Positions 4,569 to 25,395 of a stretch of DNA of 57,687 bases are shown here, one piece after another; the first letter of the stretch is position 1, and each line of letters starts with the position of its first letter. A model generated the notes under the pieces. That model was not told where the DNA came from, made no database searches, and saw only the letters and a program-made list of their open reading frames with translations. Both the position numbers and the translations under genes were made by a program. The stretch is from an uncultured Oscillospiraceae bacterium (GTDB lineage: Bacteria > Bacillota > Clostridia > Oscillospirales > Oscillospiraceae), in contig CAKTPC010000001.1 in assembly GCA_934590505.1 (NCBI GenBank), positions 1 to 57,687 on the forward strand, read 5' to 3'.

Positions 4569-5831
4569 TTATTCGATTTCGTATATCTTTATCATCCGGC
4601 GCGTTCTCATAAGCGTCAGACGATTGCGCACAAGGGGTGAATTTTTCAGCAGTACGGGAAGATCGATCTCCTCCACACCGATGGAAGCAAGATCGCGCTT
4701 CGCGTCTAGCATCTCCAGAAGCCCGTAAAGGTACTCCTCAGTCGGGAGCTCGTCAATTATATGCCGCAGCTCACCCCAGCTCGCGCTGAGCTTTTCGCGG
4801 CTCACCTTTGCAAGGCAGTCGTTTTCGTTTTCTTTTATCAGCGAATCCGCCAGCCGCTCGCCGAAGAACTTGCGAAAATGCTCCTCCGGTATGGGGGCGT
4901 AGTCGGTTATGTACGGGGTGATGTCCTCTACCTTTGCAAGGCGCTTATATTCGCGCACCGCAATGAGCGAGCCGACGCCGGTTTTCTCACCATGCATGGC
5001 GGGGAACTTTACCGGGAATGCTTCAGGCTCCATCTCTATCATGTGGGATATATGATGCTCCGCGCCGGAGGCGGGGCGGGAGTTGCCCATCATCTGCATT
5101 GCGATGCCGCTCATGATGAGCGCATAGGTCACATCGGCGTAGGCGCTCTCCTCGCCGCGGGCAATGCCGGGGACGCTCTGCATGACTGTGTCGGCGGCAT
5201 CCTGCATTATACTATAAATTTCTTCACAAAGCAACTCATTAGTGAGGACGTGCGCCATTTTCCAGTCGGCAAGGGCGGTGTATTTCGCCATAATGTCTCC
5301 CACGCCGCTGCGCACAAGCTCCATGGGAGCGTTCTTGATGATCTCCGTGTCTGCCAGAACTATCTCCGGCGCGACGGCGGGCAGCGTCTTTTTGAAGCCG
5401 TACCACGTCATTGCAGCGACAGTGCTGCAGAAGCCGTCCACGCTCGCGCCTGTCGGGCAGGAGACAAAGCGTATGCCGCGCTCGTGCGCGCAGAAGCGCG
5501 CGATGTCGTGAATGGTGCCGCTGCCGACGGCGACAATTACTTCCACATCGCCCTCAAGCTTCGCGAGCACCTCCGCCGTGGATATCTCGTTCGCGTGCAG
5601 CCCAGTCGGGTCAAGCACGATCTTCTGCTCGGCGCGCGGATGCCTGTCCGCCGTGGCGGCATAGGAGTTTTCGCCGTAGAGCGCGCAGCGCTTACCCGTG
5701 ACACCGAACTGCGCCATGTACTTCTCAAACTCAAAAAGGCAGCCCGGCTCTATCACCGCGGCGCGGGTCTCCATGGTATGCTCGCGTCCGCAGGCGCATT
5801 TTCCGGCGTACTTGCTGCAATCTATAAACAC
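4569..5831 (-). CDS. sn-glycerol-1-phosphate dehydrogenase-like protein (AraM/EgsA family)
   Basis: GSGTIHDIARF nucleotide-binding block and HHISHMIE metal-ligand block. 420 aa. Paralogue of the partial gene at 1-422. Confidence 0.7.
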   Translation of the reverse strand: MFIDCSKYAGKCACGREHTMETRAAVIEPGCLFEFEKYMAQFGVTGKRCALYGENSYAATADRHPRAEQKIVLDPTGLHANEISTAEVLAKLEGDVEVIVAVGSGTIHDIARFCAHERGIRFVSCPTGASVDGFCSTVAAMTWYGFKKTLPAVAPEIVLADTEIIKNAPMELVRSGVGDIMAKYTALADWKMAHVLTNELLCEEIYSIMQDAADTVMQSVPGIARGEESAYADVTYALIMSGIAMQMMGNSRPASGAEHHISHMIEMEPEAFPVKFPAMHGEKTGVGSLIAVREYKRLAKVEDITPYITDYAPIPEEHFRKFFGERLADSLIKENENDCLAKVSREKLSASWGELRHIIDELPTEEYLYGLLEMLDAKRDLASIGVEEIDLPVLLKNSPLVRNRLTLMRTRRMIKIYEIE

Positions 5832-8712: not shown

Positions 8713-8740
8713 TTGACTTGAAAATAAAAGCTGATATAAT
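8713..8740 (+). promoter_or_regulatory. SigA-type promoter for the alpha1-TetR transcript
   Basis: TTGACT (8713-8718), 16-nt spacer, TATAAT (8735-8740), ~40 nt upstream of ATG 8780, in an AT-rich stretch. Confidence 0.45.
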
Positions 8741-8779
8741 ATTTACATATGTATATAATACGGCATGGGGGCTGTTGTC

Positions 8780-10195
8780 ATGGAAAACGATATTAACAGA
8801 CGCTTTTTGCAGATGCTCGGATGGGAGGGCGAAGAACTTGAAAGCTTTATCCCGGATTGGGAGCTTGCTGCAAAATTTTTGAGTCTCAAAGATAAGGATA
8901 TTCAAAATGCAGTTGAAAACTGGATACCCAAGTATTGGGATATTTCTCTGCTCAGCGTCAGGAAAATGATCGCCGCATGTGTGCGAGAGACGGCAGAGCT
9001 GGCAAAAATGAACAGGTATAAGGCGGAAGGAAAGAAGATACTTTACGTGAATAACACTTCGCTTTTTGCCTGCGTATATGCAAACAAGCTTGCCGGACAT
9101 GGGGAACTGCACTTCGCTTACCCGGACTTCATTATGACGACCATGTGGCAGGCATTCTGCGGCAAGTCTGAGGGACAGTTTCCGGGTAAGCCGGCGCTGA
9201 ATCCCGCCTGCGGGCACTGTGCGCTCAACTGCACCCGCGCTACCACCAATATGGATGGGCATGTACCGGAGCCGACCGCAACATGGAACTGGGGGCTGCA
9301 CTGCAATGAAGCACCGAAAACGGAGGAACTTATCGACTGTCTTTGCCAGCGTGATGAACAGGCGGACGTCCTCACGGCCATTCCGCACGATGCGCCGCTC
9401 GGAGAGATCGAGGCAGAGAACGATGAGAGGGTCGCATTCCTTGCCGCACAGATCAGGGAAGGACAGCAGCGCGTCTCCGAGCTTACCGGCATTACGGTCA
9501 CGGATCAGGATCTGCGTGATGGCATAGAGGCTTACATGGCCTACATGCGCCGGGTGGAGAAGCTGACGGACCTTGTGGTCAATGCCGATCCTCAGCCCAT
9601 CTCGGGGATCGAACTTGCGCTGTTCAGCTTGAACATGCAGGTTTGTTTCGATTCCGGAATGGACTATGTCAACGATGCTCTCGACACGGCTATTGCCGAA
9701 GTCGAGGATCGCATACGCCGCGGTGTGGGCAATCTGCCAAAGGGCGCGCCGAGGCTCGCCTGCCATTTCGCACCGCTGAACGTGCCATGGGTCGACCGCG
9801 CGTTCAGGGACAATGGCGTAAACCTTTCACTTGGGAGAGTGTTTCCGCTGGCAAGCTGGATGGAAGAGGCGATAAAGCACGACGACGATCCATATATCGC
9901 CGCGGCGCGTATGTGCCTTATGTGGCCGGATGCGGTGAACATGAAGAACGAGGCAGAGATAGTAATAAAGCTGTTCGAGCATTATTCTTTTGACGGCGCA
10001 CTCTTTGGCTTTTACGACTTTGACCGTTGGATAGGTGCGCTCCAGAAAACAATGATCCGCATTGTCGAGGAGCGGACGGGTATCCCGCACTATTATCTTG
10101 AGGGAGAGTTCTGGGATGGCAGCAGGTATAATATTGACAACCGTATATCCATCATACGCAGCATATGCAGCTGCCTGAAGATATCCAATCTTTGA
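8780..10195 (+). CDS. 2-hydroxyacyl-CoA dehydratase / benzoyl-CoA reductase family protein, alpha (HgdA-like) subunit, copy 1
   Basis: 471 aa. Paralogue of 15480-16919 (FYDFDRWIGALQKTMIRIVEERTGIPHYYLEGEFWD vs FFDFDRWLGAQQKIMAKIVEEKTGVPSYYIEADFWD). Cys motifs CGHCALNC and WGLHCNEAPKT. Start placed at the second ATG (GGGGG SD 8 nt upstream); the tracked start is 8765. Confidence 0.75.
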   Translation: MENDINRRFLQMLGWEGEELESFIPDWELAAKFLSLKDKDIQNAVENWIPKYWDISLLSVRKMIAACVRETAELAKMNRYKAEGKKILYVNNTSLFACVYANKLAGHGELHFAYPDFIMTTMWQAFCGKSEGQFPGKPALNPACGHCALNCTRATTNMDGHVPEPTATWNWGLHCNEAPKTEELIDCLCQRDEQADVLTAIPHDAPLGEIEAENDERVAFLAAQIREGQQRVSELTGITVTDQDLRDGIEAYMAYMRRVEKLTDLVVNADPQPISGIELALFSLNMQVCFDSGMDYVNDALDTAIAEVEDRIRRGVGNLPKGAPRLACHFAPLNVPWVDRAFRDNGVNLSLGRVFPLASWMEEAIKHDDDPYIAAARMCLMWPDAVNMKNEAEIVIKLFEHYSFDGALFGFYDFDRWIGALQKTMIRIVEERTGIPHYYLEGEFWDGSRYNIDNRISIIRSICSCLKISNL

Positions 10196-10219
10196 TTAAG
10201 GCGGGGTAGTTACTGTAAG

Positions 10220-10792
10220 ATGTCACGAGAAAAAGTACTATGCGGAAAAGAGGAGATATTCCGCGTCGCTATCGGAATAGTTGACAGCGACGGAATGGAG
10301 GCCCTGTCCGTCAGAAATATAGCAAAAGAGCTTGGCGTTTCTCCAATGACGATATATAATTATGTCGAGAATCTCAACGACATAAAAAAGCGTGTCCTAA
10401 TAAACGGCTTTGACAGAATGTATTCCTCGGTGTATGCGGAGCTCAGCTGCTTGCAGGCTCCCGTAGATAAGATGCTTTTCTGCAAGACTATCGCAATGAG
10501 CGTATATAGATTTGCGAGTGAAAACCGCGGAGTGTTCATCTTTATGTTCTCCGACGGGGAGCGCCTGTTCAGCGAGGACGCGGAGGTTCGCCCTTTCTAT
10601 AATAATATCCAGAAGCTTATGAAGCGCGCAAAGGCCACAAAGAAGGACTGGACGATAAATGAAAAGGGATACAGACTTTTCGAGATCCTGATCTTCTCAG
10701 TGTCGAACCAGTTTGCGGCAGGGACAAAGTCACTGAGTGAAAAAGAGTACGGAGAGCTTATAGACTATTATCTGACAAGGTGCATCAGCTGA
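10220..10792 (+). CDS. TetR/AcrR-family transcriptional regulator
   Basis: N-terminal HTH ALSVRNIAKELGVSPMTIYNYVEN. 190 aa. Markedly lower GC than its neighbours (23/60 G+C in line 10321-10380). Confidence 0.85.
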   Translation: MSREKVLCGKEEIFRVAIGIVDSDGMEALSVRNIAKELGVSPMTIYNYVENLNDIKKRVLINGFDRMYSSVYAELSCLQAPVDKMLFCKTIAMSVYRFASENRGVFIFMFSDGERLFSEDAEVRPFYNNIQKLMKRAKATKKDWTINEKGYRLFEILIFSVSNQFAAGTKSLSEKEYGELIDYYLTRCIS

Positions 10793-10863
10793 CAGTGCGC
10801 GGCGCGTGCTGAAGAAAACTTTTAATCCGGCAAGCTATTTTGGCGCTGAACGTAAATATGCTA

Positions 10864-10892
10864 TTGACATTTATGTGACAAAAGTATATTAT
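10864..10892 (+). promoter_or_regulatory. SigA-type promoter for beta1 / small ORFs / activase
   Basis: TTGACA (10864-10869), 17-nt spacer, TATTAT (10887-10892). It overlaps the TTGACA-N6-TGACAA motif. Confidence 0.45.
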
Positions 10893-10955
10893 AGAAGAGA
10901 AAGTTTACAGCGTACATTTTAGCGCGCCCGGCACATATACAAGGAGGCGCGGCAA

Positions 10956-12113
10956 GTGATCAAAAATATTTTTGACAAACTGTCCGACATAGAAGAGCGG
11001 AGACAGAACGAGATAGCACAGCAGAAAAAAGAGGGAGTTCCCCTTGTCGTTTATAACAGCACCTTTGTACCGGAGGAGTTTATCCGTGCCGCGGGAGCAA
11101 ATACATATCTGCTTTGCAGGGGCGGCGAATCAGCGCCGGCAGCCGCGGCAATAAATGATACGCTCGAGTGCATTAACCCGCTCGCGAGGGCGAGCGTGAG
11201 CTATATCACCGGCAAAATGGACAGCATCGCATCGCAGGCGGATCTTGTTGTCACTGCCTTTTCTGACAGTCATATGAGCCGCATGAGCGAACTGCTTGAG
11301 TATAAGGGTATAAATGTATTCAAGGTCGGCGTACCGGTCGATTGGCAGCGCAGTATTTCCTTTGATTATTACTTGAGTTCACTGCGCACGATGCAGCGCC
11401 GTGTTGAAGAGCTCACCGGGAAAAAGACTGATATGGAGCTCGCGAGGGAAAATTTCGCGCGCTCCAACCGCATCAAGGCTTGCAGCCGCAGAATAAAGGA
11501 ACTGCGTAAGGCGGACAGCATTCCATTGAGACTTGAGGATGTTGTACGGCTGCACCATATGGGCTTCTTATTCAACACCGCCGATGCCGTTGACACGCTT
11601 GAAGCTTATGTGGATGAGCTTGGCAATGCCCCATCACTGTTTGATAAGGACGCGCCGCGGCTTTTGATGATAATGCGTGCTGTTCCGGCAGGCGATTATA
11701 GCTTGCTGAAGCTAATAGATGAGACGGAATGTCCGGTAGTGGCAGAGGTGCTTGATGAATGTGCCTGCGTCTCTGACAGCGATGTTGAGCTTGAGGGCGA
11801 CCTGCTCCAGAATTTTGCCAGGAGCCGTTACAGTCTGGCACTGCCGCTCAACTCTTTCCAGCCCTCGTGGAAGATCCGCTATGCCCGCATATGCGAGCTT
11901 ATCAGCGAATACCGGATATCAGGCGTTATATGGTACCAGCTCGCTTTTGACGAGATATATGACATGGAGTATACCTGCGTATCCAAATGGCTCGGCGAAA
12001 AGGGCATGCCGGTCTTGAAAATAGAGACGGATTTTGATTATTCTCAGGATAAGCTCACGGCGAAGAGAAACCAGATAAACAGCTTTATTAACCGTATCAA
12101 AAAGGGAAAGTAA
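10956..12113 (+). CDS. 2-hydroxyacyl-CoA dehydratase family protein, beta (HgdB-like) subunit, copy 1
   Basis: GTG start with AAGGAGG SD. Paralogue of 16919-18073 (GVIWYQLAFDEIYDMEYTCVSKWLGEKGMPVLKIETDFDYS vs GILWYQLAFDEIYDMEFTVLRAKLAKMGMPVMKLESSYEYS). Confidence 0.75.
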   Translation: MIKNIFDKLSDIEERRQNEIAQQKKEGVPLVVYNSTFVPEEFIRAAGANTYLLCRGGESAPAAAAINDTLECINPLARASVSYITGKMDSIASQADLVVTAFSDSHMSRMSELLEYKGINVFKVGVPVDWQRSISFDYYLSSLRTMQRRVEELTGKKTDMELARENFARSNRIKACSRRIKELRKADSIPLRLEDVVRLHHMGFLFNTADAVDTLEAYVDELGNAPSLFDKDAPRLLMIMRAVPAGDYSLLKLIDETECPVVAEVLDECACVSDSDVELEGDLLQNFARSRYSLALPLNSFQPSWKIRYARICELISEYRISGVIWYQLAFDEIYDMEYTCVSKWLGEKGMPVLKIETDFDYSQDKLTAKRNQINSFINRIKKGK

Positions 12114-12192
12114 AGCTTGGCAGCCTTCGTCGGAGTTATATAAAAGTTGGAAAAGCCCATAGAACATATAAAACTGTACGGAGGTAAAGAAA

Positions 12193-12462
12193 ATGGACTT
12201 CAAAACGGCAAACCTCAAGATCAGCGACGAGGTCGCAGAGCTTATGGAAGAGCGCGGAGTCAAGGAGAGCGACGTGCGTGAGATCCTTGACTATGCCGAA
12301 AGCACCGGCAAAAAGCTCTATGTTGAAGGAGAGGAGCATTTCCTCGCGCGCAAGCGCATAGGCAAATTCTCCGGCTATGTCGAGTATCTGCTGACGGACG
12401 ACGGTGCAGAGTTGCTTGATGTGTACAGCCACATGGTCAGATTTGAGGACGAAGAAGAATAA
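12193..12462 (+). CDS. Small acidic protein of unknown function (89 aa; faint DUF4258-like pattern)
   Basis: GGAGG SD 9 nt upstream. ISDEVAELMEERGVKESDVREIL...LLDVYSH resembles the helix / beta-sheet layout of DUF4258 proteins. Acidic tail EDEEE. Confidence 0.5.
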   Translation: MDFKTANLKISDEVAELMEERGVKESDVREILDYAESTGKKLYVEGEEHFLARKRIGKFSGYVEYLLTDDGAELLDVYSHMVRFEDEEE

Positions 12463-12479
12463 TTAAAGGAGACTGAGAA

Positions 12480-12671
12480 ATGAGCAAGTGGAAATGCTAT
12501 ACCTGTAAAGTCGACATGGAAGAAGTCGATGATATCGCGATCAGCTTCGGCGAGATGAATCTGCCTGAGGCGGAAGGCCTTCGCTGCCCTAACTGCGGTA
12601 TACAGTTCCTTGAAAGCGAGTATGTTGTCGATCAGCTTATGAGCGCAGAGCAGATGCTTGCGGGCAAGTGA
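12480..12671 (+). CDS. YgiT-type zinc-ribbon protein (63 aa)
   Basis: AGGAG SD. CYTC-x28-CPNCG (KCYTCKVDMEEV...GLRCPNCGIQFLESE) has the spacing of the MqsA/YgiT zinc finger. No HTH domain follows. Confidence 0.55.
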   Translation: MSKWKCYTCKVDMEEVDDIAISFGEMNLPEAEGLRCPNCGIQFLESEYVVDQLMSAEQMLAGK

Positions 12672-12689
12672 TTCTTGCGGGGGGAATAT

Positions 12690-13493
12690 ATGGATCTGTT
12701 TGCGGGAGTGGACATTGGTTCCACCACTTCGAAATGTGTTCTTATTGATGAAAATAAGGACGTTAAGGTATTCTATCACGATTATACGGAGTTCGACCGC
12801 GACCTGAGCGGCGAGAAGGTTCTCAATGCGGCGCTGGAAGAGATCGGCGCGAAGCTCGAAGATGTCAAGTATATCGTCGCCACCGGATACGGCAGAAAAG
12901 CTTTCCAGCGCGCGAATATGGACATACCCGAGATCATTGCGCACGGTGTCGGCACACATCAGGTGGAGCCGGACGCGCGCACGATAATCGACATCGGCGG
13001 GCAGGACAGCAAAGTGATCGAGCTTGACGAGTTCGGCACAGTCACAAAGTTTGAGATGAACGACAAATGTGCCGCGGGCACTGGCCGTTTCTTCGAGGTC
13101 CTGACCCACCGTCTGCTCGGCATAGAAATGGATCAGCTTTCCGATCTTATGAAGCAGTCGACAAAGCCCTGCAACATCAGCAGTATGTGTACAATATTTG
13201 CCGAGTCAGAGATCATATCGTATCTCTCTCAGAAGGAAAACGTTGCGGATATTGCTGCGGGTACGGGTCGTTCGATCGCAAAGCGCGTCCTTGCCATGGG
13301 GCGTGCTGCGCAGATTCCATATGACGAGCCTATCGTTTTCTCGGGCGGCGTTGCCAACAACCCCGCTATCGCTGATATTTTTGCCGACCTTCTGCATAAG
13401 CCGGTAAAGGCAATCGCACTGCCGCAATCCACGGCTGCGCTGGGCGCTGCAATAAGAGCGCTGCGCGAATACAAAAAAGAACAGAAAGCGTAA
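12690..13493 (+). CDS. CoA-substrate-specific enzyme activase (HgdC/BcrAD_BadFG ATPase family)
   Basis: MDLFAGVDIGSTTSKCVLID, IIDIGGQDSKVI, NDKCAAGTGRFFE (cluster-bridging Cys) and FSGGVANNPA. It is the only activase in the window. Confidence 0.85.
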   Translation: MDLFAGVDIGSTTSKCVLIDENKDVKVFYHDYTEFDRDLSGEKVLNAALEEIGAKLEDVKYIVATGYGRKAFQRANMDIPEIIAHGVGTHQVEPDARTIIDIGGQDSKVIELDEFGTVTKFEMNDKCAAGTGRFFEVLTHRLLGIEMDQLSDLMKQSTKPCNISSMCTIFAESEIISYLSQKENVADIAAGTGRSIAKRVLAMGRAAQIPYDEPIVFSGGVANNPAIADIFADLLHKPVKAIALPQSTAALGAAIRALREYKKEQKA

Positions 13494-13505
13494 TTATGAA
13501 AGATC

Positions 13506-13534
13506 AAAAGCGGCAGCTGTGCGCTGCCGCTTTT
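13506..13534. terminator. Bidirectional rho-independent terminator after the activase gene
   Basis: Perfect 12-bp stem aaaagcggcagc (13506-13517) / gctgccgctttt (13523-13534) with a 5-nt loop and A/T runs on both sides. Confidence 0.7.
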
Positions 13535-13554
13535 GATATATGGGAATCTGTTTT

Positions 13555-14817
13555 ATGGAAAAGGCATTTGAAAAGCTGTTATCGCTGCTGCCGGAGTGCA
13601 GATGCAGTATTGCCGCGCTATGCCGCGGAGCGGAGTATTTCTCCGTAAGTGCCGGCGATGTGGAAAGAGCCGCACTGGAACTGCCGCAGAATCATGACCT
13701 GCGCTATAAGGGAGTGCGTATGCTGCTCTCGGCGTATATAGAAGAATTTGCGGCACTCTTCGAGACGCATGCATCGGCACAGTGCGAGGTCACTGTGCCT
13801 GCCCCGATATGCTCGGTGCTTGCGCTGCAAAACGCTGCGCGCGGGAGGATAGAATTTTTTTCATCTGCGTTCTTTTCCCAGGTGATGCTGCGCGGAATAC
13901 TGCTGAACGCTGAGCCGCTGAATGTAGCGAGCTGCTCGAAGCGGCGCTGCGGACTGAACAGAATGAGAGAAACTTTGCTGACCACGCCGCCGTTTGAGCA
14001 GCAGAGCTATCAATTGCAGTTCTCGGCGCTTTGCGACGAATGCGCAAAAACAGGGGAGAGCTGCTCAAAGAGCGTGTCCGCCTATACGCTGAGCCTCCCT
14101 CATGGGAGCAATAAAATGCTGCCGGAGATTACGCGCGAGTTTTATTCCGAACTTTGCAGGGAGCTGGAGATAAATGTTTCCAAGGAGGATATGAGATACG
14201 CCTTCGAGCTGTATGGTCGATTGCTGAAAGCGGGGAAGCGGATATGTCGGCTCAACTCAAGGCCGGACAGAGAGCCGCTCTGGGGCAATAGCCTTGCGCT
14301 TGCACAGTCATCTGTGCTTATGGCGGCGAGAGCCCCGGAACGCTTTATATCTGCGCTTGAGCTTTTGGCTGCGGAGCTTGAGGATGCACCTGCGTTTAAA
14401 GACAGACGCAGGATATACTGCTATTTTATTCCTTTTTTACAGCCGAGGATAGAAAGAAGGTTCCGCGAAAATAAAGTACGCCTGTGCGGAAATGCCGCTT
14501 TCATAAATATCGGGAGTTCTGCCGGATTTGATATCGCCTGGGCGACAGCCGCGTGGGCGGAGAGCCTGATAGGCCGCGCGTCGCCGGAAAAACAAAGCAC
14601 CGCCATAGCCGAGGAAATGGCAAATGGCGGGTTTGATACCTATCTGACCGGTATGTTTTCTTTTGACCGCTGTTTAGGCGCGTCCGTCCCAATGCAGAGA
14701 AAGATACTCACGGAGAAATATGGGATAAAAACGATCGTCCTCAATGCGGATTTCTGGTGCGAGAATGAAATGTTCGGAAATCTCCAGGAGCGTATCGATC
14801 AGATCTGTATGTGCTGA
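13555..14817 (+). CDS. Divergent, orphan 2-hydroxyacyl-CoA dehydratase family alpha-like protein (copy 3)
   Basis: C-terminal FSFDRCLGASVPMQRKILTEKYGIKTIVLNADFWCE aligns with the FDFDRW...ADFWD block of alpha1/alpha2. CSKRRCGLNRMR and LCDECAKT correspond to CRHCPLNKMR and NCDEGPKT. Weak SD, and it lies directly behind a terminator. Confidence 0.6.
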   Translation: MEKAFEKLLSLLPECRCSIAALCRGAEYFSVSAGDVERAALELPQNHDLRYKGVRMLLSAYIEEFAALFETHASAQCEVTVPAPICSVLALQNAARGRIEFFSSAFFSQVMLRGILLNAEPLNVASCSKRRCGLNRMRETLLTTPPFEQQSYQLQFSALCDECAKTGESCSKSVSAYTLSLPHGSNKMLPEITREFYSELCRELEINVSKEDMRYAFELYGRLLKAGKRICRLNSRPDREPLWGNSLALAQSSVLMAARAPERFISALELLAAELEDAPAFKDRRRIYCYFIPFLQPRIERRFRENKVRLCGNAAFINIGSSAGFDIAWATAAWAESLIGRASPEKQSTAIAEEMANGGFDTYLTGMFSFDRCLGASVPMQRKILTEKYGIKTIVLNADFWCENEMFGNLQERIDQICMC

Positions 14818-14821
14818 AGAG

Positions 14822-15388
14822 CTATTCGGGATGGTTTTCGTCAAGCGGATGAGTGACCGTCTTGTAATGCTCCTTTAGAAATATCGCCAGATCCTGCAGC
14901 TCGTTGGACATGAACTGCGTAAGATCAGTGCATGCGTTTATAGCCTCTGCCAGCAGCGCCCCGGTGCCTTTTTCGAGGTCCTTTATCCGTGCGGGAAGGC
15001 CAAGGGAAAACGCGCGCTGGAGCGACGCGGAGGATATTCTCTGCATGCTTGTAAGCCTGCTGAGTATATCGTTTTCACTTGATGTGACATCCGCGATTAT
15101 CTGCGCGTTCTGTCCTGCGAGCCTGCCTGCAGATACCTTTTCGTTGAGAGCAGCCGTGAAGGCAATGCACTGATCCAAACCGGCAAAAATATCCATGCGG
15201 TCTGATGCCAGTCCGTCGGCCCACTTTTTTATTTCATCCGACGCTGCGGCGGATGCGACGGAGTTTATCTTTTCAAGAAGAGCTCCGCTTCTTTTGTCAT
15301 ATTCAAATTTAAACAGCTCAAGCTCGCCCATGAATCCGGGAGAGAGGTTTTCCGGTACGGGGCCGCTGCAGTTTTCCTTTTTGAACAT
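14822..15388 (-). CDS. Hypothetical protein (188 aa, predicted all-helical, no recognisable family)
   Basis: Start moved to MFKKENCSG (GGAGG SD). No motifs recognised. Convergent with 13555-14817, with 4 nt between the two stop codons. Confidence 0.45.
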   Translation of the reverse strand: MFKKENCSGPVPENLSPGFMGELELFKFEYDKRSGALLEKINSVASAAASDEIKKWADGLASDRMDIFAGLDQCIAFTAALNEKVSAGRLAGQNAQIIADVTSSENDILSRLTSMQRISSASLQRAFSLGLPARIKDLEKGTGALLAEAINACTDLTQFMSNELQDLAIFLKEHYKTVTHPLDENHPE

Positions 15389-15428
15389 ATTATTCCTCCA
15401 TAAACGGATATTGAATAAAGCCATTCAG

Positions 15429-15458
15429 AAAAGTCCGCCGGGATCCCCGGCGGACTTT
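15429..15458 (-). terminator. Rho-independent (bidirectional) terminator of the beta2-alpha2 operon
   Basis: 10-bp GC stem gtccgccggg (15433-15442) / cccggcggac (15446-15455), flanked by aaaa and ttt. Confidence 0.7.
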
Positions 15459-15479
15459 ATTGATTATGCTGGAGTGCGC

Positions 15480-16919
15480 TTAGCCTTCCTGCGCGTCCTT
15501 GAGAGCCTTGCGGGCATGGATAATCTGGCAGACAGATTCGATCCTGGTCTTGAGGGACTCGGGGCTGTAGTCGCGGTCATCCCAGAAGTCAGCCTCGATG
15601 TAGTAGGAGGGAACTCCGGTCTTTTCTTCAACGATCTTGGCCATGATCTTCTGCTGAGCGCCAAGCCAGCGGTCAAAGTCGAAGAATCCGAGGATCATAC
15701 CATCAGGATGGCACATTTCAACCTTTTCGATCATAGACTCTGCTTCGCCTGCGAGGTTACGGCACATACCGTTGCGGGACCACATTTCTGCGGCAGCCAT
15801 CCAAGGATCGTCAGGGTACTTGGAAGCGGACTGCTCAAGCTTGGACAGTGTGAGCGCATGTGAGAAGGTACCGATAACGCCGTTGTCGCGGAAGAACTTG
15901 CCGACCCAGGGAACGCAGAAGGGCAGGTTGTAGTAACCGACAGTCGGGGTGTCCTTAGGCATAACGCCTTCGCCGTTCTTGATGGCCTTGCGGCACTCTT
16001 TGATGAGGGTGTCGATAGCATCTTCCATGTACTTGAAGCCGGTGTTGAACGGAACGGTCAGGCACTGCTGGAGCATGGTAAGGGTCTCGCCGCCGAGTAC
16101 GGGAGGATTGGAGTTGGTGGTCATCTGAGTGAGCATACCGACCTTGAAGCCCATCGCGCCGGCATGCTTGTTGGCGAGAGCGAGGTGCTCATCGGTAACT
16201 TCGATGCCTGTTGCTTCTTCGATGGCCTTGACGCCGAGCTTCATCTGCTCAGACATGAATCTTACGCGATCCTCGATCATGTCCTCCTGCTCATCGAAGC
16301 GGCCGTCGTGAGGAACACGGGAGACGTGATAACGCCACTGTTTGCCGGTGATACCCTGGATGAATTCGTCGGTCTTGGGGCCTTCGTCGCAGTTGAAGCC
16401 CCAGCTCCAGATAAGGTCAGGAGCAGCGATAGTGCCGGTGGTGTATGCGGCAACACGCATCTTGTTGAGCGGGCAGTGACGGCAGCCATAGGTGAAGCCC
16501 ATCTTTTCAGCCTCGTTCAGGAAGGGAGCTGCGCTGTGGAAGAAAGAGTTGAGGACGTTGACGAGGATCAGATCGGGGAAGCCGATGAAAACCTTGTCGC
16601 CGCCGGACTCTTTGACTGCGTAATAGTAGTTTGCAATCGCGGGAAGAATACCGTAGACGATCTTGACGCCGTTGGCTTTCTTGTTGGGGGTATCGCATAT
16701 CTCGGCAACCTCGCGCAGGTATGCGCCGATCATCTTGCGCACGCCGAGGTACTTGAGGTCCCAGTTCTGGGGAAGATAGGTGTCGACAGCGTAAGCGACT
16801 TTATCGTCTGTGAGCTGAAGCTTCTCAGCGGTCTTTACCCATATGGGATAGAACTTTTCGAGCTCTTCGCCTTCAAAAGCGGCAAGCTCAAGCAGTTCGC
16901 GATTAACGTCTCTAGCCAT
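15480..16919 (-). CDS. 2-hydroxyacyl-CoA dehydratase / benzoyl-CoA reductase family protein, alpha subunit, copy 2
   Basis: 479 aa with CRHCPLNK, WGFNCDEGPKT and FFDFDRWLGAQQK. Its start overlaps the beta2 stop by 1 nt (TAATG). Confidence 0.8.
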   Translation of the reverse strand: MARDVNRELLELAAFEGEELEKFYPIWVKTAEKLQLTDDKVAYAVDTYLPQNWDLKYLGVRKMIGAYLREVAEICDTPNKKANGVKIVYGILPAIANYYYAVKESGGDKVFIGFPDLILVNVLNSFFHSAAPFLNEAEKMGFTYGCRHCPLNKMRVAAYTTGTIAAPDLIWSWGFNCDEGPKTDEFIQGITGKQWRYHVSRVPHDGRFDEQEDMIEDRVRFMSEQMKLGVKAIEEATGIEVTDEHLALANKHAGAMGFKVGMLTQMTTNSNPPVLGGETLTMLQQCLTVPFNTGFKYMEDAIDTLIKECRKAIKNGEGVMPKDTPTVGYYNLPFCVPWVGKFFRDNGVIGTFSHALTLSKLEQSASKYPDDPWMAAAEMWSRNGMCRNLAGEAESMIEKVEMCHPDGMILGFFDFDRWLGAQQKIMAKIVEEKTGVPSYYIEADFWDDRDYSPESLKTRIESVCQIIHARKALKDAQEG

Positions 16920-18073
16920 TATTTTGCCTCCTTTATGCTTTCAACAAAGCTTTCAAGTCTTGTAGTGAGCGGAGCCATAGCTTCGCGAGAGTACTCGTAA
17001 GAGGACTCGAGCTTCATGACGGGCATGCCCATTTTAGCAAGCTTTGCGCGGAGAACGGTGAACTCCATGTCGTATATTTCGTCGAAGGCGAGCTGATACC
17101 AGAGGATACCGTCGACCTTGTATTCCTTGATGAGCTCTTCGAGATACTCGAAACGGGTGTCCCATGCGGGCTGGAAGATGGTGATGGGAACCTTCTTGTC
17201 ATATATCGCGGAAGCATAAGCCTCGATGACGTCGCCCTCGGTGGAAATGTCGCAGCGGAAAGGACGGATAGCTTCATCCAGAAATTCGGAGACGATCTCG
17301 CCGCCGGCAGCTTCGATGATGCTGGGAACCATATAGTCGCCAAGAGCGACTGCGCGGCCCATGATAAGGATGCGCGGTGCGCCTTCCTTGTGGACGCCGG
17401 GAGCGTCCTTCAGCTCGTCATAGATCTTCTCCAGAGCGGCTATGCTCTCATCGTAGCTCACGCGGTAGGTGTAATGATTGAGTTTGATGAAATCGCTGAA
17501 GGTGATGGGCGGGTTGTCCTTCTTGCGCAGCTCGTCTATCTTGCGCAGCAGCTCATTTATCTTATTGGTCTTTGCGTAGTTTGCGCGGATGTCGTCATCG
17601 CTGATCGGGTGACCGGCGATCTCCTCCAGCTTTGCGCGGAACTCCTTGAGCTCGTTGCGGTAGTACTCCTGGGAGATACCGACGACGTTGTCTGCGGGGA
17701 CGCCTATTTTATAGACGGGTACACCCTTGTACTCAAGGATCTCGGACATACGGCCATAGTGGCAGTCAGACTGCTGGATCGCGACGCAGTCAGCAATGGG
17801 CATGACCGGGTCGAGGTTCATGAGGTAAGCGCCTGCCATGGTGGCTGCCAGAGGATTCATAAAGCGCAGCATATAGTCGAGCGTAGCCTCGGGGGGCTGG
17901 GGGTCGCCGCCTTTGCAAATAAGGAAAGGATCCATACCGGCAGCAACGATCCACTGTTCAGGAACGAAATCGCCGAAGTACTCAACGACTTTCTTTCCTT
18001 CCTTCTTGTCTTTGACTATCTCCAGCGGACGCTTGCTGGAGAGTCTGTCAAGTTCCTGCATTATCTCCTTCAC
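16919..18073 (-). CDS. 2-hydroxyacyl-CoA dehydratase family protein, beta subunit, copy 2
   Basis: GTG start with AAGGAGG 7 nt upstream. 384 aa, collinear with beta1. Confidence 0.8.
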   Translation of the reverse strand: MKEIMQELDRLSSKRPLEIVKDKKEGKKVVEYFGDFVPEQWIVAAGMDPFLICKGGDPQPPEATLDYMLRFMNPLAATMAGAYLMNLDPVMPIADCVAIQQSDCHYGRMSEILEYKGVPVYKIGVPADNVVGISQEYYRNELKEFRAKLEEIAGHPISDDDIRANYAKTNKINELLRKIDELRKKDNPPITFSDFIKLNHYTYRVSYDESIAALEKIYDELKDAPGVHKEGAPRILIMGRAVALGDYMVPSIIEAAGGEIVSEFLDEAIRPFRCDISTEGDVIEAYASAIYDKKVPITIFQPAWDTRFEYLEELIKEYKVDGILWYQLAFDEIYDMEFTVLRAKLAKMGMPVMKLESSYEYSREAMAPLTTRLESFVESIKEAK

Positions 18074-18545: not shown

Positions 18546-19712
18546 ATGGAAAAATCTAAAGGCAAGATTCAGATCGGCATATATCTGATCGCTATTCTGA
18601 TGATGGGCGTTGTCGGCATCGCCAGCTCTCTCGGCGTTGTCGCGGCACAGTTCCCGGAGGTGTCCATGACCAACGTTCAGGTTGGCCTCATCTCTGTCCC
18701 CTGCATTGTTATAATGGTCGTTACTCTGCTGATGGGCAAGCTCATGCAGGTCATCTCCAAAAAGACGCTCACCATTATTGCGATCGTTCTCTTCCTTGTC
18801 GGCGGTATCGGGCCTGCTTTCATGAGCTCGTTCTCCGCTATCATCGTTCTGCGCGGCGTGTTCGGCGCGGGTGTCGGTATCCTTCAGGTCGTCAGCACAG
18901 CTCTTGTTGCCGAGAACTTTGAAGGCGCAGAGCGTGAGAAGGTTCAGGGCAATCTTCAGGCATTCCAGATGCTCGGCTGCGCGATCATGGTCTTTGTCGG
19001 CGGCTGGCTCGGCGCAAAGGGCTGGAACACCGCATTCTATGTTCACGCTCTTGCTCTTGTCTCTCTTGTTGCTGCAATAGTCTGCATTCCGAACCACAAG
19101 CCTGTCGCGGCTGCCAAGACCGACGACAAGCCCGCAGAGAAGGCACAGCTCACCGGCAAGATGTGGGTGTGGATGATCGTTGCATTCTTTGTGTTCTGCA
19201 CCGGTCAGATATACTCCAACTCCAACGCGTTCCTCGTTGCTGATAAAGGGATCGGCGATTCCGCCGCTTCAGGTCTGGGCATGGCGTTCTTCTGCGCAGG
19301 CGGCATCCTGATGGGATTCATGTACGGCAAGCTTGCAAAGGCTACCGGCAAGTTCACCATGGCTATCGGCTTCTTTGTGATGGCGCTTTCCTATGTCATC
19401 ATGGCCGCAGGCAGCAGCATTGCAGCGTTCTATATCGGCTGCCTTGTTCTTGGCCTTGGCATGTCCATAGTTATGCCTAATGTGTTCCTCAATGTCGGCA
19501 GTTCCGTAGCTCCGGCGGCAGTCGGTGTGGCTCTGTCCATCGCGACCTGTGTTCAGAACTTCGGTCAGTTCTGCAGCCCGTATATCGTCAATCCTATCGT
19601 CAACGCCATCGGCGGTACCGCAAGCGTAGTTTCCTTCTATGTCGCGGCAGTGCTCGGCGCGGTACTCGGTGTTGCAATGCTCGTTAAAGCGTTCTGCGAG
19701 AAAAAGGCCTGA
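18546..19712 (+). CDS. MFS transporter
   Basis: 388 aa, ~12 hydrophobic segments. MFS-like loop LMGKLMQVISKKT between TM2 and TM3. Confidence 0.8.
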   Translation: MEKSKGKIQIGIYLIAILMMGVVGIASSLGVVAAQFPEVSMTNVQVGLISVPCIVIMVVTLLMGKLMQVISKKTLTIIAIVLFLVGGIGPAFMSSFSAIIVLRGVFGAGVGILQVVSTALVAENFEGAEREKVQGNLQAFQMLGCAIMVFVGGWLGAKGWNTAFYVHALALVSLVAAIVCIPNHKPVAAAKTDDKPAEKAQLTGKMWVWMIVAFFVFCTGQIYSNSNAFLVADKGIGDSAASGLGMAFFCAGGILMGFMYGKLAKATGKFTMAIGFFVMALSYVIMAAGSSIAAFYIGCLVLGLGMSIVMPNVFLNVGSSVAPAAVGVALSIATCVQNFGQFCSPYIVNPIVNAIGGTASVVSFYVAAVLGAVLGVAMLVKAFCEKKA

Positions 19713-19843: not shown

Positions 19844-21256
19844 ATGTACGATTACGATATAGTATGTATCGGCGGCGGCCCCGGCGGCTCGGCCTGCGCG
19901 ATGCGCTCCGCTGACCGCGGCAAAAAGGTTGCAATAATTGAAGCACGTCCGAAGAACGGTTCAGGCGGTACCTGCGTTAACCGCGGCTGTATTCCGACCA
20001 AGGCGCTCATGGCCTCCACAAATCTTTATGCTTCCCTCAAGGAAGCCAAGGCCTACGGCATCAACATTGATATGTCTGCCGTTACGGTTGATTTCAAGGC
20101 GATAGACAAGCGCAGAAAAGGCGTCATAAACAATCTCGGCTTTGGCCTTGAGACCCTGCTGTGGAAGAAGTCCCGCGGTATCGATGTCATCAAGGGCAGA
20201 GCAAGACTTGTTGATGCGCATACCATTGAGGTCGACAACGGCAAGGAGAAGAAAATCGTCACTGCCGAGTATATCAACATCGCCGTCGGCTCCGAGCCTG
20301 CGGAGATACCGGCATTCCATGTCGACCATCAGAAGGTCATCACCTCCAATGAGATAATGGATTTCTCACGCCCCATGCCCAAGAGCATAGTCATCATCGG
20401 CTCCGGTGCTATCGGCCTTGAGTATGCCCATATTTACAACACCTTTGATATTCCCGTTACCATCGTCGAGATGATGCCGAATCTCGTTCCTGCTCTGCAC
20501 GAGCCCGAGATCACCGACGCTGTGCGCAAGTCCCTTGAGAAGCGCGGCATAGTCGTCAAGACCGGCTCCGGCATTGCAAACGTCGAGGTCCAGCCTGACG
20601 GCAGCGTCAAGTCCACTCTCGCAAACGGCGAGGAGCTTATCTCCGACGAAGTTCTCTGCGCCATCGGCCGCACGCTCAATACCCGTGATATGGGCCTTGA
20701 GGAAGTCGGCGTCAAGATGGAGAAGAACGGCCAGATCATCACCGACGAGCACATGCGCACCAGCGTGCCCAACATCTTTGCCGCAGGCGATGTCACCACC
20801 GGCACACAGCTTTCCGACAAGGCGCAGCGTCAGGGACTGGTCATTGCCGAGACGATAGCGGGCAATGACTATTATATAAACTACGACGTTATCCCCGTCA
20901 CCACCTTCCTCGAACCCGAGATCGCATGGGTCGGCTACACTCAGGCCGATGCGGAAGCCAAGGGGATCAAGACGATCTCCGGTTCTCTCGGCTTTGCGTC
21001 CAACGAGAAGATGATCGCTATCGGCAAGACCGAAGGCGTTATCAAGGTCGTTGCCCGAGAGGATGACCATGTTATCATCGGCTGCCAGATCTTCGGCCAT
21101 GAGGCCTGCGACCTGATCGCAGAGATGACCGTCGCTGTTGAGAACAAGATGACGCTTGAGCAGGTGTACAACACCATCCACCCGCACCCGACCGTGACCG
21201 AGCTTATCCTCGAAGTATGCAAGCGCGCGGTCAACCTGGCCTTTGATAAGGGCTGA
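19844..21256 (+). CDS. Dihydrolipoyl dehydrogenase-like class-I pyridine nucleotide-disulfide oxidoreductase (stand-alone E3)
   Basis: GGGPGGSACA dinucleotide fold, redox disulfide GGTCVNRGCIPTK, C-terminal HPHPTVTE His-Glu dyad. No E1, E2 or H-protein genes in the window. Confidence 0.8.
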   Translation: MYDYDIVCIGGGPGGSACAMRSADRGKKVAIIEARPKNGSGGTCVNRGCIPTKALMASTNLYASLKEAKAYGINIDMSAVTVDFKAIDKRRKGVINNLGFGLETLLWKKSRGIDVIKGRARLVDAHTIEVDNGKEKKIVTAEYINIAVGSEPAEIPAFHVDHQKVITSNEIMDFSRPMPKSIVIIGSGAIGLEYAHIYNTFDIPVTIVEMMPNLVPALHEPEITDAVRKSLEKRGIVVKTGSGIANVEVQPDGSVKSTLANGEELISDEVLCAIGRTLNTRDMGLEEVGVKMEKNGQIITDEHMRTSVPNIFAAGDVTTGTQLSDKAQRQGLVIAETIAGNDYYINYDVIPVTTFLEPEIAWVGYTQADAEAKGIKTISGSLGFASNEKMIAIGKTEGVIKVVAREDDHVIIGCQIFGHEACDLIAEMTVAVENKMTLEQVYNTIHPHPTVTELILEVCKRAVNLAFDKG

Positions 21257-21310: not shown

Positions 21311-22012
21311 GTGATTATGGAAAAAACACCGCTGAGGGATGCCTTCGTGCAGCGCAAAGATCGCTTCTTCCTGCTGGATAAGGGGTTTATAAACGCAGGC
21401 TTTACCGAAACGCTCGAACTGCTTGAGATCGGCTGCGCCGGTGGAGAAGCATCAGAGCACCTGTCTGGTAAAGGCTTTACAAAGCTCACGGCGATCGATA
21501 TTGACGGCACTGTACTTGAGCGAGCCCGAGAGTGTGCGCCGGGCTGCCGGTTTATCTGCGCCGATGCCTGTGCGATGCCGTTTGCGGACGAAAGCTTTGA
21601 CGGCGTTTTCAGTGAAGCGGCCTTTGCCGTGATACCGGATAAAGCTGCCGCAGCTGCAGAATATGCACGCATACTGAGAAGCGGCGGCAGATTCCTGCTG
21701 AATGATTTTGCACTCAGAAAGCCAACCGCGGCAGAGCGCCGGGATATACAAGGCATACCGTGCCTTGAAGGGGTGCAGACTGCTGAGGATTATATCGAAA
21801 TTTTTCGAAGTGCCGGGTTCAAAACGGTATATCAAAAAGAGGAATACCCGGAGCTTGTGCGCATTGCCGCGAGCCTGAGCCGTCGGTACGGAGTTCCGAT
21901 GAAAGATGTCGGCAGCTATATACAGTGCGCCTTCGGAAACAGCAAATATGTCAACGAGTTTTTCAAGAATACGGAAATGAGCTATTACCAGATCGTTTTT
22001 GAAAAGGAATAG
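21311..22012 (+). CDS. Class-I SAM-dependent methyltransferase (Methyltransf_11-like; ArsM-related scaffold lacking most of the ArsM cysteines)
   Basis: Motif I LLEIGCAGGEAS, motif II/III FDGVFSEAAF, ILRSGGRFLLND. C-terminal block IPCLEGVQTAEDYIEIFRSAGF. Confidence 0.8.
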   Translation: MIMEKTPLRDAFVQRKDRFFLLDKGFINAGFTETLELLEIGCAGGEASEHLSGKGFTKLTAIDIDGTVLERARECAPGCRFICADACAMPFADESFDGVFSEAAFAVIPDKAAAAAEYARILRSGGRFLLNDFALRKPTAAERRDIQGIPCLEGVQTAEDYIEIFRSAGFKTVYQKEEYPELVRIAASLSRRYGVPMKDVGSYIQCAFGNSKYVNEFFKNTEMSYYQIVFEKE

Positions 22013-22013
22013 A

Positions 22014-24628: not shown

Positions 24629-25395
24629 ACGAGGAATTTGAGCGTAAGCTGGATGAGCTTGCGCGGCTTGTAACGCAGGCAAAGCACACTGTGCTCTTCG
24701 GCGGAGCGGGAATGTCCACCGAGAGCGGGCTTGCGGATTTCCGCAGCGCGGTGTCCGGGCTTTATAACAATAAGGAGTTCTACGGTTATTCCGCGGAGCG
24801 GATACTCTCGCGGGAATTCTTTGAAGAGCACCCGGAAATAATGTTCAATTTCTACCGCACCGAGCTGCTGAACCTCGATGCGCGCCCGAATCTGGCACAC
24901 TTCGCGCTGGCGTGGATGGAAGAAAAGGGGATGCTTTCCTCAATCATCACGCAGAACGGCGACGCGCTGCACCAGCGCGCCGGCAGCAGAAAGGTCTTTG
25001 ACCTGCATGGGAACGTGTATAAAAACACCTGCCTCAAGTGCGGGAAGAGCCACGATGTGCGCCGTGTGAAATACTGCGAGGGGATACCGTACTGCGAGTG
25101 CGGCGGCATTATCCGCCCCGGAATAGTCCTTTTCGGCGAAACGCCCGATCCCGATGTGATCTTCGGCTGCGTGAAGGAGATCGCGCAGTGCGACCTTCTG
25201 ATCGCGGCGGGAACATCGCTGAGAGTGTCGTCCGCCGGACGGCTGCTTGACCGCTTCAGAGGTATGCTTGTGATACTTAACAATGATGAGACCGCGCTTG
25301 ACGACCGCGCAGACCTGATAGTACGCGGAAAAATGGGCGAGATATTCTCCGCTCTGTGGGAAAGGCTTAAAAGATATGAACGAGATACTGCATGA
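24625..25395 (+). CDS. NAD-dependent protein deacylase (Sir2/CobB family sirtuin)
   Basis: GAGMSTESGLADFRS, ITQNGDALH, DLHGN (catalytic His), zinc ribbon CLKCG...CECGG. The GTG start overlaps the ligase stop (GTGA). Confidence 0.85.
   Translation: MNEEFERKLDELARLVTQAKHTVLFGGAGMSTESGLADFRSAVSGLYNNKEFYGYSAERILSREFFEEHPEIMFNFYRTELLNLDARPNLAHFALAWMEEKGMLSSIITQNGDALHQRAGSRKVFDLHGNVYKNTCLKCGKSHDVRRVKYCEGIPYCECGGIIRPGIVLFGETPDPDVIFGCVKEIAQCDLLIAAGTSLRVSSAGRLLDRFRGMLVILNNDETALDDRADLIVRGKMGEIFSALWERLKRYERDTA

Follow-up and report, generated by a model that had tools for sequence, protein, structure and literature searches.

HGD-D-type alpha and beta genes with altered cluster ligands form one arm of a conserved TrsS-associated gene cluster in an uncultured Oscillospiraceae bacterium

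A stretch of 57,687 nucleotides from an uncultured gut Oscillospiraceae bacterium (GenBank assembly GCA_934590505.1, contig CAKTPC010000001.1, positions 1 to 57,687; hereafter the window) was found, by open reading frame (ORF) mapping and family scans, to carry three alpha-like and two beta-like HGD-D genes together with one HgdC-type activase gene. These genes are one arm of a conserved supercluster that occupies about 8.7-30.6 kb of the window, and the system can best be pictured as two arms around a hub, the HGD-D genes being the accessory arm. The five HGD-D genes and the activase may well form a distinct branch of the benzoyl-CoA reductase, 2-hydroxyacyl-CoA dehydratase and double-cubane cluster protein (BCR/HAD/DCCP) superfamily, which would be dedicated to ATP-driven low-potential electron injection. 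A first-pass annotation of this DNA had recognised the HGD-D genes, but its reading ended at position 18,073, and it therefore missed the partners that define the system up to about 30.6 kb, among them a TrsS pair, a methyltransferase and a DUF5714 protein.

The first alpha/beta pair lies on the plus strand, where alpha1 (A1; 8780-10195; HGD-D E 6e-20; motifs CGHC, WGLHCNEAPKT and FDRW), whose ORF at its longest begins at 8765, is followed by beta1 (B1; 10956-12113; HGD-D E 5e-44). Further along the same strand are the HgdC-type activase (12690-13493; BcrAD_BadFG E 1e-53; TIGR00241 235.6 bits against a cutoff of 125.4; longest ORF from 12675) and an orphan alpha-like gene, alpha3 (A3; 13540-14817; HGD-D E 2e-12). 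The second pair is encoded on the minus strand by beta2 (B2; 16919-18073; HGD-D E 5e-61) and alpha2 (A2; 15480-16919; HGD-D E 3e-22), and the overlap of the B2 stop codon with the A2 start at 16919 suggests that the two are translationally coupled. The two pairs, the single activase and the third alpha-like gene are thus all present as first annotated, and the starts chosen then at 8780 and 12690 fit the alignments of homologues better than the longest ORFs do. HgdC-type activases are ATPases with a bridging [4Fe-4S] cluster, and no further copy of the activase or of an HGD-D gene was found by tblastn in the whole window.

The alpha genes (about 475 amino acids) and the beta genes (about 385 amino acids) encode distinct products. 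A1 and A2 share 36% identity over 474 amino acids and B1 and B2 38% over 384, while A3 is 22-24% identical to A1 and A2 and has its own set of cysteines (a Cx4C motif with C132 and C137, a CDEC motif with C165 and C168, and C294) along with an FDR motif. Genes of the A3 type adjoin TrsS genes in four related loci (L003, L039, L041 and L072), lying directly upstream of them in the first three.

Judged by hidden Markov model cutoffs and by structure searches, these genes lie well away from the characterised families. The scores against the equivalog models (HadB/C, BcrB/C, BzdN/O and double-cubane) were all between 22 and 177 bits, against cutoffs of 350-750: specifically, 31-35 bits for HadB (cutoff 750), 32-65 for HadC (700), 22-32 for BcrB/BzdO (449-487), 23-78 for BcrC/BzdN (421-454) and, for the double-cubane model NF040772 (350), 31-35 for the alphas and 133-177 for the betas (133 for B1 and 177 for B2). 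The top NCBIfam equivalog scores of A1 were 22-35 bits against cutoffs of 350-750, and no dedicated NCBIfam model for the alpha/beta/activase arm was matched. By sequence the betas are nearest to DCCP (6ENO, E 1e-34), then to BzdN (E 1e-18) and then to HadC. The AlphaFold (AF2) model of A2, with a mean predicted local distance difference test score (pLDDT) of 92, matched DCCP, HadB, BzdO and MbdO almost equally well in Foldseek (E 1e-13 to 1e-15, 15-18% identity, TMq 0.65-0.69), the top match being DCCP and the best TM-score fit HadB (TMt 0.81, root-mean-square deviation 3.8 Å). Moreover, when a profile built from 62 alphas was run against 1.84 billion representative proteins, 486 proteins matched at E<=1e-3 and 139 at E<=1e-30, and since the matches were so few, the alpha clade is small, discrete and far from most HGD-D proteins.

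The cysteine motifs that the first-pass annotation had seen in both full alphas are real (ACGHC and WGLHCNEAPKT in A1, GCRHC and WGFNCDEGPKT in A2), and a census of 96 alpha and 69 beta homologues identified CxHC and WGxxC(D/N)ExPKT as family hallmarks of alpha. In A2 numbering the family motifs read C146-R-H148-C149, C177-D-E179-G-P-K182 and F-D416-R-W. Across the alpha family C149, C177, E179 and K182 are invariant, C146 is present in 90/96 and H148 in 93/96 sequences, and residue 416, which aligns to the canonical C-terminal-domain cysteine of DCCP and HadB, is Asp in 94 of the 96 and Glu in the other 2. Alpha retains CxHC and one further cysteine; the convergence of C146, C149, C177 and D416 is inferred from the alignment only.

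In beta the canonical C-terminal-domain cysteine position is also held by an aspartate, Asp331, which is invariant (69/69), as is Asn73 (69/69), aligned to C70 of BzdN. Cysteine occurs at position 53 in 75% of the betas, at position 104 in 64% and at the column of V340 in 80%, and none of these is invariant; B1 has C53, S104 and C340 at the three positions, and B2 has C53, C104 and V340. As many as 51 beta positions are conserved at 95% or more, which argues that beta is not a decaying pseudo-subunit.

The N-terminal extension of the alphas, which the first-pass annotation did not recognise from known enzymes, is conserved throughout the family, with L10, P25, L36, P50, W53, R61 and E70 invariant or nearly so. 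It adds about 50-70 amino acids relative to Had/Hgd-type enzymes, lies outside the region that can be aligned to solved relatives, and is predicted in the AF2 model to fold into four helices (residues 5-82, pLDDT above 90). Among the listed proteins, full-length matches of the alpha profile begin at profile positions 1-12, so that the extension is included in them.

These ligand patterns set the window apart from each of its better-known relatives. Canonical 2-hydroxyacyl-CoA dehydratase operons carry a CoA-transferase and usually an acyl-CoA dehydrogenase and ETF. With the Had/Hgd/Fld/Lcd dehydratases the window shares the HGD-D fold, two adjacent paralogous subunits and a single-gene HgdC-type activase, and a three-Cys catalytic cluster in alpha is plausible. 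However, those enzymes have a [4Fe-4S] cluster with three Cys ligands in each subunit, whereas here Asp replaces the C-terminal-domain cysteine in both subunits, beta lacks a conserved Cys triad and alpha has the extension; the companions here are a ligase, radical S-adenosylmethionine (SAM) enzymes, a methyltransferase and a disulfide reductase, and CoA-transferase, acyl-CoA dehydrogenase and ETF are absent from 152 related loci (2.08 Mb) save for one weak CoA-transferase match.

The class I benzoyl-CoA reductases (BzdNO, BcrBC and MbdNO) are heterodimers of HGD-D paralogues and are reached by Foldseek at E 1e-13. Their substrate comes from an AMP-forming CoA ligase, a part that the PaaK-like ligase of the cluster may or may not play here. 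BzdO binds a [4Fe-4S]-OH2 cluster through C95, C128 and C380, which leaves an open site, BzdN holds an [8Fe-9S] double cubane through six cysteines (C36/73/100/263/293/327), the HAD enzymes keep one cluster per subunit, and a cluster-loss series has been proposed for the superfamily (PMC11971306). Of the six BzdN cysteines only C100 has an aligned equivalent, C104 of B2, the other positions being occupied by G, N/A, L, I and D; in contrast to the heterodimeric ATPases BzdPQ and BcrAD there is one activase gene in the window, and dienoyl-CoA pathway genes are absent here. DCCP (NF040772; YjiM), which works with DCCP-R, is the best sequence relative of beta and is activase-dependent, but it is a homodimer with a 7-Cys motif in each chain (CX19CX18-19CX29CX166-170CX32-34CX32C), whereas alpha and beta genes occur here in pairs and the DCCP cysteines have counterparts only in C53 and C104 of B2. 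In PlsA/PlsR and Ger, which act on glycerolipids, the activase domain is joined to the HGD-D domains or paired with them; the window contains no such fusion.

The partners of the HGD-D genes belong largely to the TrsS/DVU_1553-DVU_1557 neighbourhood, for which the models NF045646, NF045666, NF045667, NF045645 and NF045663 are available. Two of its members pass their curated cutoffs in the window, namely radical SAM enzyme 2, which is a true TrsS of the Cys form (25376-26701, plus strand; NF045646 534 bits against 490; a CC pair at residues 411-412), and a DVU_1553-family PaaK-like AMP-dependent (CoA) ligase (23288-24628, plus strand; NF045666 320 bits against 300, compared with 127 bits against a cutoff of 700 for the PaaK model), with only a Sir2 gene between them. 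Radical SAM enzyme 1 (21999-23282, plus strand), a TrsS/Tes-like paralogue 34% identical to enzyme 2, has an N-terminal zinc ribbon and a CNMNCPVC motif and scores 377 bits against the NF045646 cutoff of 490 and 303 bits with the Tes model. Upstream of it is a DVU_1556-like class I SAM methyltransferase (21311-22012, plus strand; NF045667 107 bits against 155; Methyltransf_11 E 4e-21), and a DUF5714/MbdU-like Cys-rich protein (29851-30606, plus strand; PF18978 E 2.8e-62; NF045648 135 bits against 600) closes the cluster. This protein has CCCC at residues 8-11, three CxxC motifs and CC at 193-194, and since the related MbdU family is listed with CU (Cys-Sec, Sec being selenocysteine) motifs, it is likely to bind a metal or a cluster. 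All ORFs of the cluster were read as Cys forms rather than the Sec forms of the neighbourhood, a search for selenocysteine insertion sequence (SECIS) elements or in-frame TGA codons not having been made.

The two Tes-related radical SAM enzymes and the ligase make up the core of the supercluster, and its hub consists of this methyltransferase, an Lpd-like reductase and two tiny ORFs, s89 and s63. The Lpd-like class I flavoprotein disulfide reductase (19844-21256, plus strand; TIGR01350 456.8 bits against 408.8) has a CVNRGC redox disulfide and a C-terminal HPHPT...E motif, and adjoins beta-alpha in most loci of Firmicutes and spirochaetes. s63 (12480-12671, plus strand; 63 amino acids; DUF7479 PF24292 37.5 bits against 27; NF045645 28.7 against 60) is a zinc-ribbon or rubredoxin-like protein of the DUF7479/DVU_1557 family with four cysteines (6, 9, 36 and 39), and is always paired with s89. 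s89 (12193-12462, plus strand; 89 amino acids) is a Cys-free alpha+beta protein homologous to the C-terminal domain of the NF045663 PNDR/dicluster-binding protein (model positions 677-756, E 6.5e-15), the only part of that model matched in the window. Its AlphaFold model (pLDDT 87) shows two helices followed by a four-stranded sheet without obvious catalytic residues; the fold search returned a weak RelE/HigB-like topology (best E 5e-3, TM about 0.5), and we do not take s89 for a toxin.

A word-based search for s89 homologues found no fusions, only close standalone copies, but tblastn in TrsS-anchored loci revealed that in five distant loci s89 forms the C-terminal end of a larger protein, about 800 amino acids long (at about 8.2-8.6 kb in L120, L133, L138 and L150, and at 5956-6174 in L143). 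The protein of L133 contains, by Pfam, a GltD-like NAD(P)/FAD module, a 4Fe-4S dicluster domain and two CCG (HdrD-type) domains. In Firmicutes and spirochaetes, by contrast, s89 is free-standing and accompanies the Lpd-like reductase, the fusion protein replacing this pair in the distant loci; the window follows the former arrangement, with no fused PNDR/dicluster/CCG protein. Since two unrelated disulfide-type reductases are tied to the same s89 adaptor domain, thiol/disulfide (or chalcogen) chemistry is a plausible core feature of the system.

The same gene set was recovered, through protein look-ups and a genome scan, in Cuneatibacter, Anaeromicrobium sediminis, Schaedlerella arabinosiphila, Faecalicatena and Sporobacter, and also in Anaerovoracaceae, Peptostreptococcaceae, Sphaerochaetaceae, Oceanispirochaeta and deltaproteobacterial metagenome-assembled genomes (MAGs). 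When the neighbourhood of the extension-bearing clade was examined, TrsS, hub and ligase genes proved to be syntenic with alpha/beta across phyla, and the disulfide reductase and the two tiny ORFs that the first-pass annotation had listed as neighbours turned out to be conserved partners in related loci. Modularity was counted in loci of at least 15 kb, 32 of them alpha-anchored from genomes and 36 TrsS-anchored from metagenomes, the hub being scored as present when at least three of its four genes were found. The activase was present in 27/32 alpha-anchored loci, the hub in 18, TrsS with the ligase also in 18, and both in 14; hub and alpha/beta occurred without TrsS in L006, L036, L042 and L063. 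In the TrsS-anchored loci the ligase was found in 35/36 and the methyltransferase in 23/36.

Our favoured model, which we hold with middling confidence, is that the activase passes an electron to the alpha cluster, which would then perform radical chemistry within a pathway that includes the CoA ligase and the TrsS pair. Each alpha/beta pair would form a heterodimer, in which alpha would hold one catalytic [4Fe-4S] cluster bound by C146/C149, C177 and, in place of the C-terminal-domain cysteine, Asp416, so that all three Cys ligands would come from the N-terminal domain; H148, E179 and K182 are candidate acid/base residues. Because no beta cysteine is invariant, the electron-relay cluster of beta is presumably lost or bound atypically, and this wiring would be a further step in the cluster-loss series of the superfamily. 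The single HgdC-type activase, reduced by a low-potential donor, would inject the electron through ATP hydrolysis and serve all the paralogues. The ligase, rather than a CoA-transferase, would CoA-activate a carboxylic acid substrate, TrsS would act at an unactivated carbon, alpha/beta would carry out a ketyl-type reduction, a dehydration or the cleavage of a C-heteroatom bond, and the reductase would serve thiol/disulfide redox steps. Paralogous alpha/beta sets, some with their own TetR regulator, may broaden the substrate range.

The substrate would most simply be a CoA thioester, as hinted by the DVU_1553 ligase scoring above its cutoff and by a 4HBT hotdog thioesterase gene in a sister genome (L068), which lies about 600 bp upstream of a third alpha/beta pair. 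The Suf genes in the cluster of L003, the SsuA-like binding protein in the window and the Sec variants listed by the curators fit the thiol/disulfide theme and prove nothing.

Several observations weigh against this model. An HGD-D gene was found in only 8/36 TrsS-anchored loci and the activase in only 4/36, the alpha/beta pair is missing from L071 and L072 despite the presence there of the hub, the ligase and two TrsS genes (L072 retains one orphan alpha3-like gene beside the ligase), and Actinomycetota and Desulfomonilaceae carry only beta-alpha-activase, without TrsS or the hub. One Actinomycetota MAG (L049, 7328-12427) encodes a VprA-like FAD_binding_2 flavoprotein followed by beta, alpha and activase, indicating that the alpha clade has at least one second context, in which it is paired with an ene-reductase-type enzyme; this context was annotated in L049 alone, and the flavoprotein scores 328 bits against a cutoff of 600 for the VprA (vinyl phenol reductase) model. 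Since the modules are separable, the substrate of alpha/beta need not be the product of the ligase. Alpha-like genes outnumber beta-like genes in many clusters, with one beta and three alphas in L025, L033 and L018, which makes the pairing of subunits uncertain and orphan alphas the rule; alpha-alpha pairing is possible. Heterodimer formation, cluster content and the sharing of one activase are, in addition, inferred from sequence, "CoA ligase" is a family name and PaaK-like enzymes also make other adenylate-derived products, and an Lpd-type reductase, whose working potential is that of NAD(P)H, is not enough on its own to reduce an activase. In the literature searched we found no experimental work, substrate, product or phenotype for any member.

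The possibility of a conventional fermentation enzyme bears on the question of CoA context. The first-pass annotation had noted that no CoA-transferase accompanies these genes; none is present in the span it read, but its wording was misleading because the conserved partner is a ligase, not a transferase. A linked CoA-transferase was searched for, and one of family III was found at 46776-48038, 28 kb downstream, where it is part of a separate operon (at 45.8-55.8 kb, in the region 44602-55835) with its own divergent LysR and genes for an enoyl-CoA hydratase, an AcrC-like acyl-CoA dehydrogenase (48078-49244; 361 bits against 640), a CitMHS carboxylate transporter, an acyl-CoA ligase, EtfB and EtfA. 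Such a set would suit ordinary 2-hydroxyacyl-CoA dehydratases of the acrylate/aryl-lactate-type branch, with the TrsS genes as unrelated neighbours. We nevertheless regard this explanation as very improbable: the subunits miss the HadB/HadC cutoffs by more than 600 bits, the canonical cluster cysteines are replaced, and TrsS, hub and ligase keep their synteny with alpha/beta in other phyla. Between the operon and the cluster stand recJ, relA/spoT, pfk and further housekeeping genes, and the genes of the operon are all but missing from the 152 related loci, the exceptions being the one CoA-transferase match (26% identity) and four weak acyl-CoA ligase matches (25-31%). We rejected the operon as a cognate partner of the HGD-D cluster since it is not conserved with it, and treated it, from its gene content, as an independent Car/Acr-type enoyl-CoA reductase system. 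The earlier suggestion that the substrate is not of the classical type holds to this extent, that the low scores, the altered ligands and the missing companion genes argue against classical amino-acid-fermentation 2-hydroxyacyl-CoA dehydratases; the parts of it concerning CoA context and an imported compound were not supported.

Two further explanations keep the cluster together and change its purpose. Following the organometallic/organometalloid reading given by NCBI curators to related selenoprotein neighbourhoods, alpha/beta might be DCCP-like ATP-dependent reductases of small non-CoA substrates in metal(loid) or chalcogen handling. In such a system the reductase and alpha/beta would supply the reduced element, to which the methyltransferase and TrsS would add methyl or alkyl groups; the DUF5714/MbdU and zinc-ribbon proteins would serve as its chaperones, and its transport would fall to the transporters. 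The affinity of beta to DCCP speaks for this, as do the ArsM variants that are the best non-family matches of the methyltransferase, MerA as the second-best match of the reductase (316 bits), the match of the DUF5714 protein to "metal-binding double selenoprotein MbdU" with CC where CU is listed, and the SufC/SufBD genes in the L003 cluster; Haft and Gwadz moreover observed a parallel architecture at the SAO organometallic locus, beside which double-cubane proteins occur in varying number. We consider the metal(loid) reading unlikely, as the sequences lack the double-cubane Cys motif, neither the MerA nor the ArsM match reaches its cutoff, no Sec form was read here and the conserved acyl-adenylate/CoA ligase would have no obvious role. 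An arsenic-efflux-family permease does lie 1.3 kb beyond the cluster, on the strand opposite to the DUF5714 gene (31921-32796, minus strand; NF037962 248 bits against 100; Pfam ArsP_2), but this ArsP-like gene occurs in no related locus, was rejected as a cluster member and is probably incidental. Alternatively, the supercluster might be biosynthetic, and would then make or remodel either a lipid or a cofactor of the thiol type. The Tes-like pair would act on a fatty or isoprenoid acid activated with CoA, coupling or functionalising its unactivated carbons; alpha/beta would be reductases akin to PlsA/PlsR or Ger, the methyltransferase would modify the resulting compound, and a dithiol product would be cycled by the Lpd-like enzyme. 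TrsS is indeed the closest relative of the tetraether lipid synthase Tes, which is the next-best family of enzyme 2 (357 bits against 450), the plasmalogen synthase PlsAR and the ether-lipid enzyme Ger both belong to the HGD-D superfamily, the reductase scores above the cutoff of the dihydrolipoyl dehydrogenase model, and the Suf genes of L003 would fit sacrificial Fe-S sulfur donation. Yet the conserved set lacks acyltransferase, glycerol-lipid and acyl carrier protein genes, the TetR regulators, transporters and variable number of paralogues look catabolic or inducible, and the distribution is patchy across taxa, unlike that of a core lipid pathway, so that this reading strikes us as improbable. 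A glycerol-1-phosphate-dehydrogenase-like Fe-ADH_2 gene about 3 kb upstream of A1 (4569-5831, minus strand) might be added in its favour, since two Scatomorpha loci (L022 5585-6775 and L023 9626-10816) have a homologue with 41% identity at a distance of about 1.5 kb from a third alpha/beta paralogue; however, it scores 190 bits against a cutoff of 413, stands in a DeoR/HAD-hydrolase/sugar-ABC transport context and recurs only in those two sister genomes, and we rejected it as a cluster member.

Returning to the favoured model of activase-driven radical chemistry in a ligase and TrsS pathway, a stronger version can be put forward tentatively. Alpha and beta would then be a fourth functional class of the BCR/HAD/DCCP superfamily, with a single Cys3(+Asp) cluster and a relay-less partner, and together with the Tes-like radical SAM enzymes and the NAD(P)H disulfide reductase they might define a new anaerobic pathway in which C-C or C-S/C-Se bonds of a CoA-activated organosulfur/organochalcogen acid are formed or cleaved, and which would occur widely in Clostridia of the gut, spirochaetes and anaerobes of sediments. 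ATP-driven electron-injection enzymes carry out some of the hardest anaerobic reductions, such as Birch-type dearomatisation and ketyl dehydration, and to our knowledge cofactor layouts have been defined in only three of their branches. The swap of Asp for Cys in both subunits and the cluster-free partner would, if true, extend the cluster-loss series (PMC11971306). According to PMC13188914, which cites Haft & Tolstoy 2025, the TrsS, ligase, methyltransferase, zinc-ribbon and MbdU families were named bioinformatically by NCBI curators, who list Sec-containing variants of several member families. As far as we found, the ligand pattern of alpha/beta and the hub-and-arm association are undescribed. 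The constant company of Tes-like radical SAM enzymes, a CoA ligase and reductases of the disulfide type suggests a pathway that has no assignment so far, carried by Oscillospiraceae and Lachnospiraceae of the human and chicken gut and by many environmental anaerobes; the cluster offers a compact, testable gene set for a new substrate class and a biochemical context for the curator-defined TrsS neighbourhood.

The remaining neighbours named in the first-pass annotation, a TetR regulator and a major facilitator superfamily (MFS) transporter, were confirmed by family scans, as were the disulfide reductase and the two tiny ORFs. The TetR-family gene lies between A1 and B1 (10220-10792, plus strand; TetR_N E 5.5e-6), and five related loci (L005, L006, L012, L018 and L061) share the arrangement alpha1-TetR-(beta1 or another HGD-D gene). 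The MFS transporter (18546-19712, plus strand; MFS_1 E 1.5e-36), divergent from B2, is restricted to the Oscillospiraceae lineage, and an ABC transporter (SsuA/NMT1-like binding protein, ATPase and permease; 26970-29846, plus strand) is a lineage-specific insertion whose substrate-binding protein is present only in L073, L074 and L076 among related loci. The idea of an imported xenobiotic or dietary compound rests on the TetR regulator and on these two transporters, neither of which is core, and we rejected the transporters as substrate clues for that reason. A Sir2/CobB-type NAD-dependent deacylase gene (24625-25395, plus strand; NF001752 240.7 bits against 221), also specific to the Oscillospiraceae lineage, separates the ligase from TrsS, whose first 20 nt it overlaps; in this lineage the ligase may be regulated through acyl-lysine, or the deacylase may be linked functionally to TrsS. 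A Sir2-TrsS fusion has been called in JGI metagenomes (protein P0154, 692 amino acids).

Finally, consensus scans predicted a promoter-like site upstream of A1 (8713-8740, plus strand; TTGACT, a 16-nt spacer and TATAAT with an extended -10 TG; 11/12 consensus matches) and a hairpin directly downstream of A2 (15430-15458; 13 pairs, 9 of them G-C), the likely terminator of a B2-A2 operon, and no Rfam match that would indicate a riboswitch was found in the whole window. Convergent with A3 is u200 (14822-15424, minus strand; 200 amino acids; no Pfam or NCBIfam match), which is found only in the closest relatives at 45-98% identity and diverges faster than its neighbours; it is probably a real gene, and its membership in the system is doubtful. 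Within the cluster of L003, between the activase and the methyltransferase, SufC-like and SufBD genes are present (12304-13981), which hints at a special demand for Fe-S cluster assembly; at the corresponding position L041 gave only a generic ABC-ATPase tblastn match, SufBD not having been checked there. The third alpha/beta paralogue pair mentioned above (L068 7629-11416, from Candidatus Scatomorpha gallistercoris) is 55% identical to A2, and no activase or hub genes were found within 10 kb of it. The window itself is 99% identical to a MAG from a Hadza sample, and its nearest named relatives are Candidatus Scatomorpha from the chicken gut.

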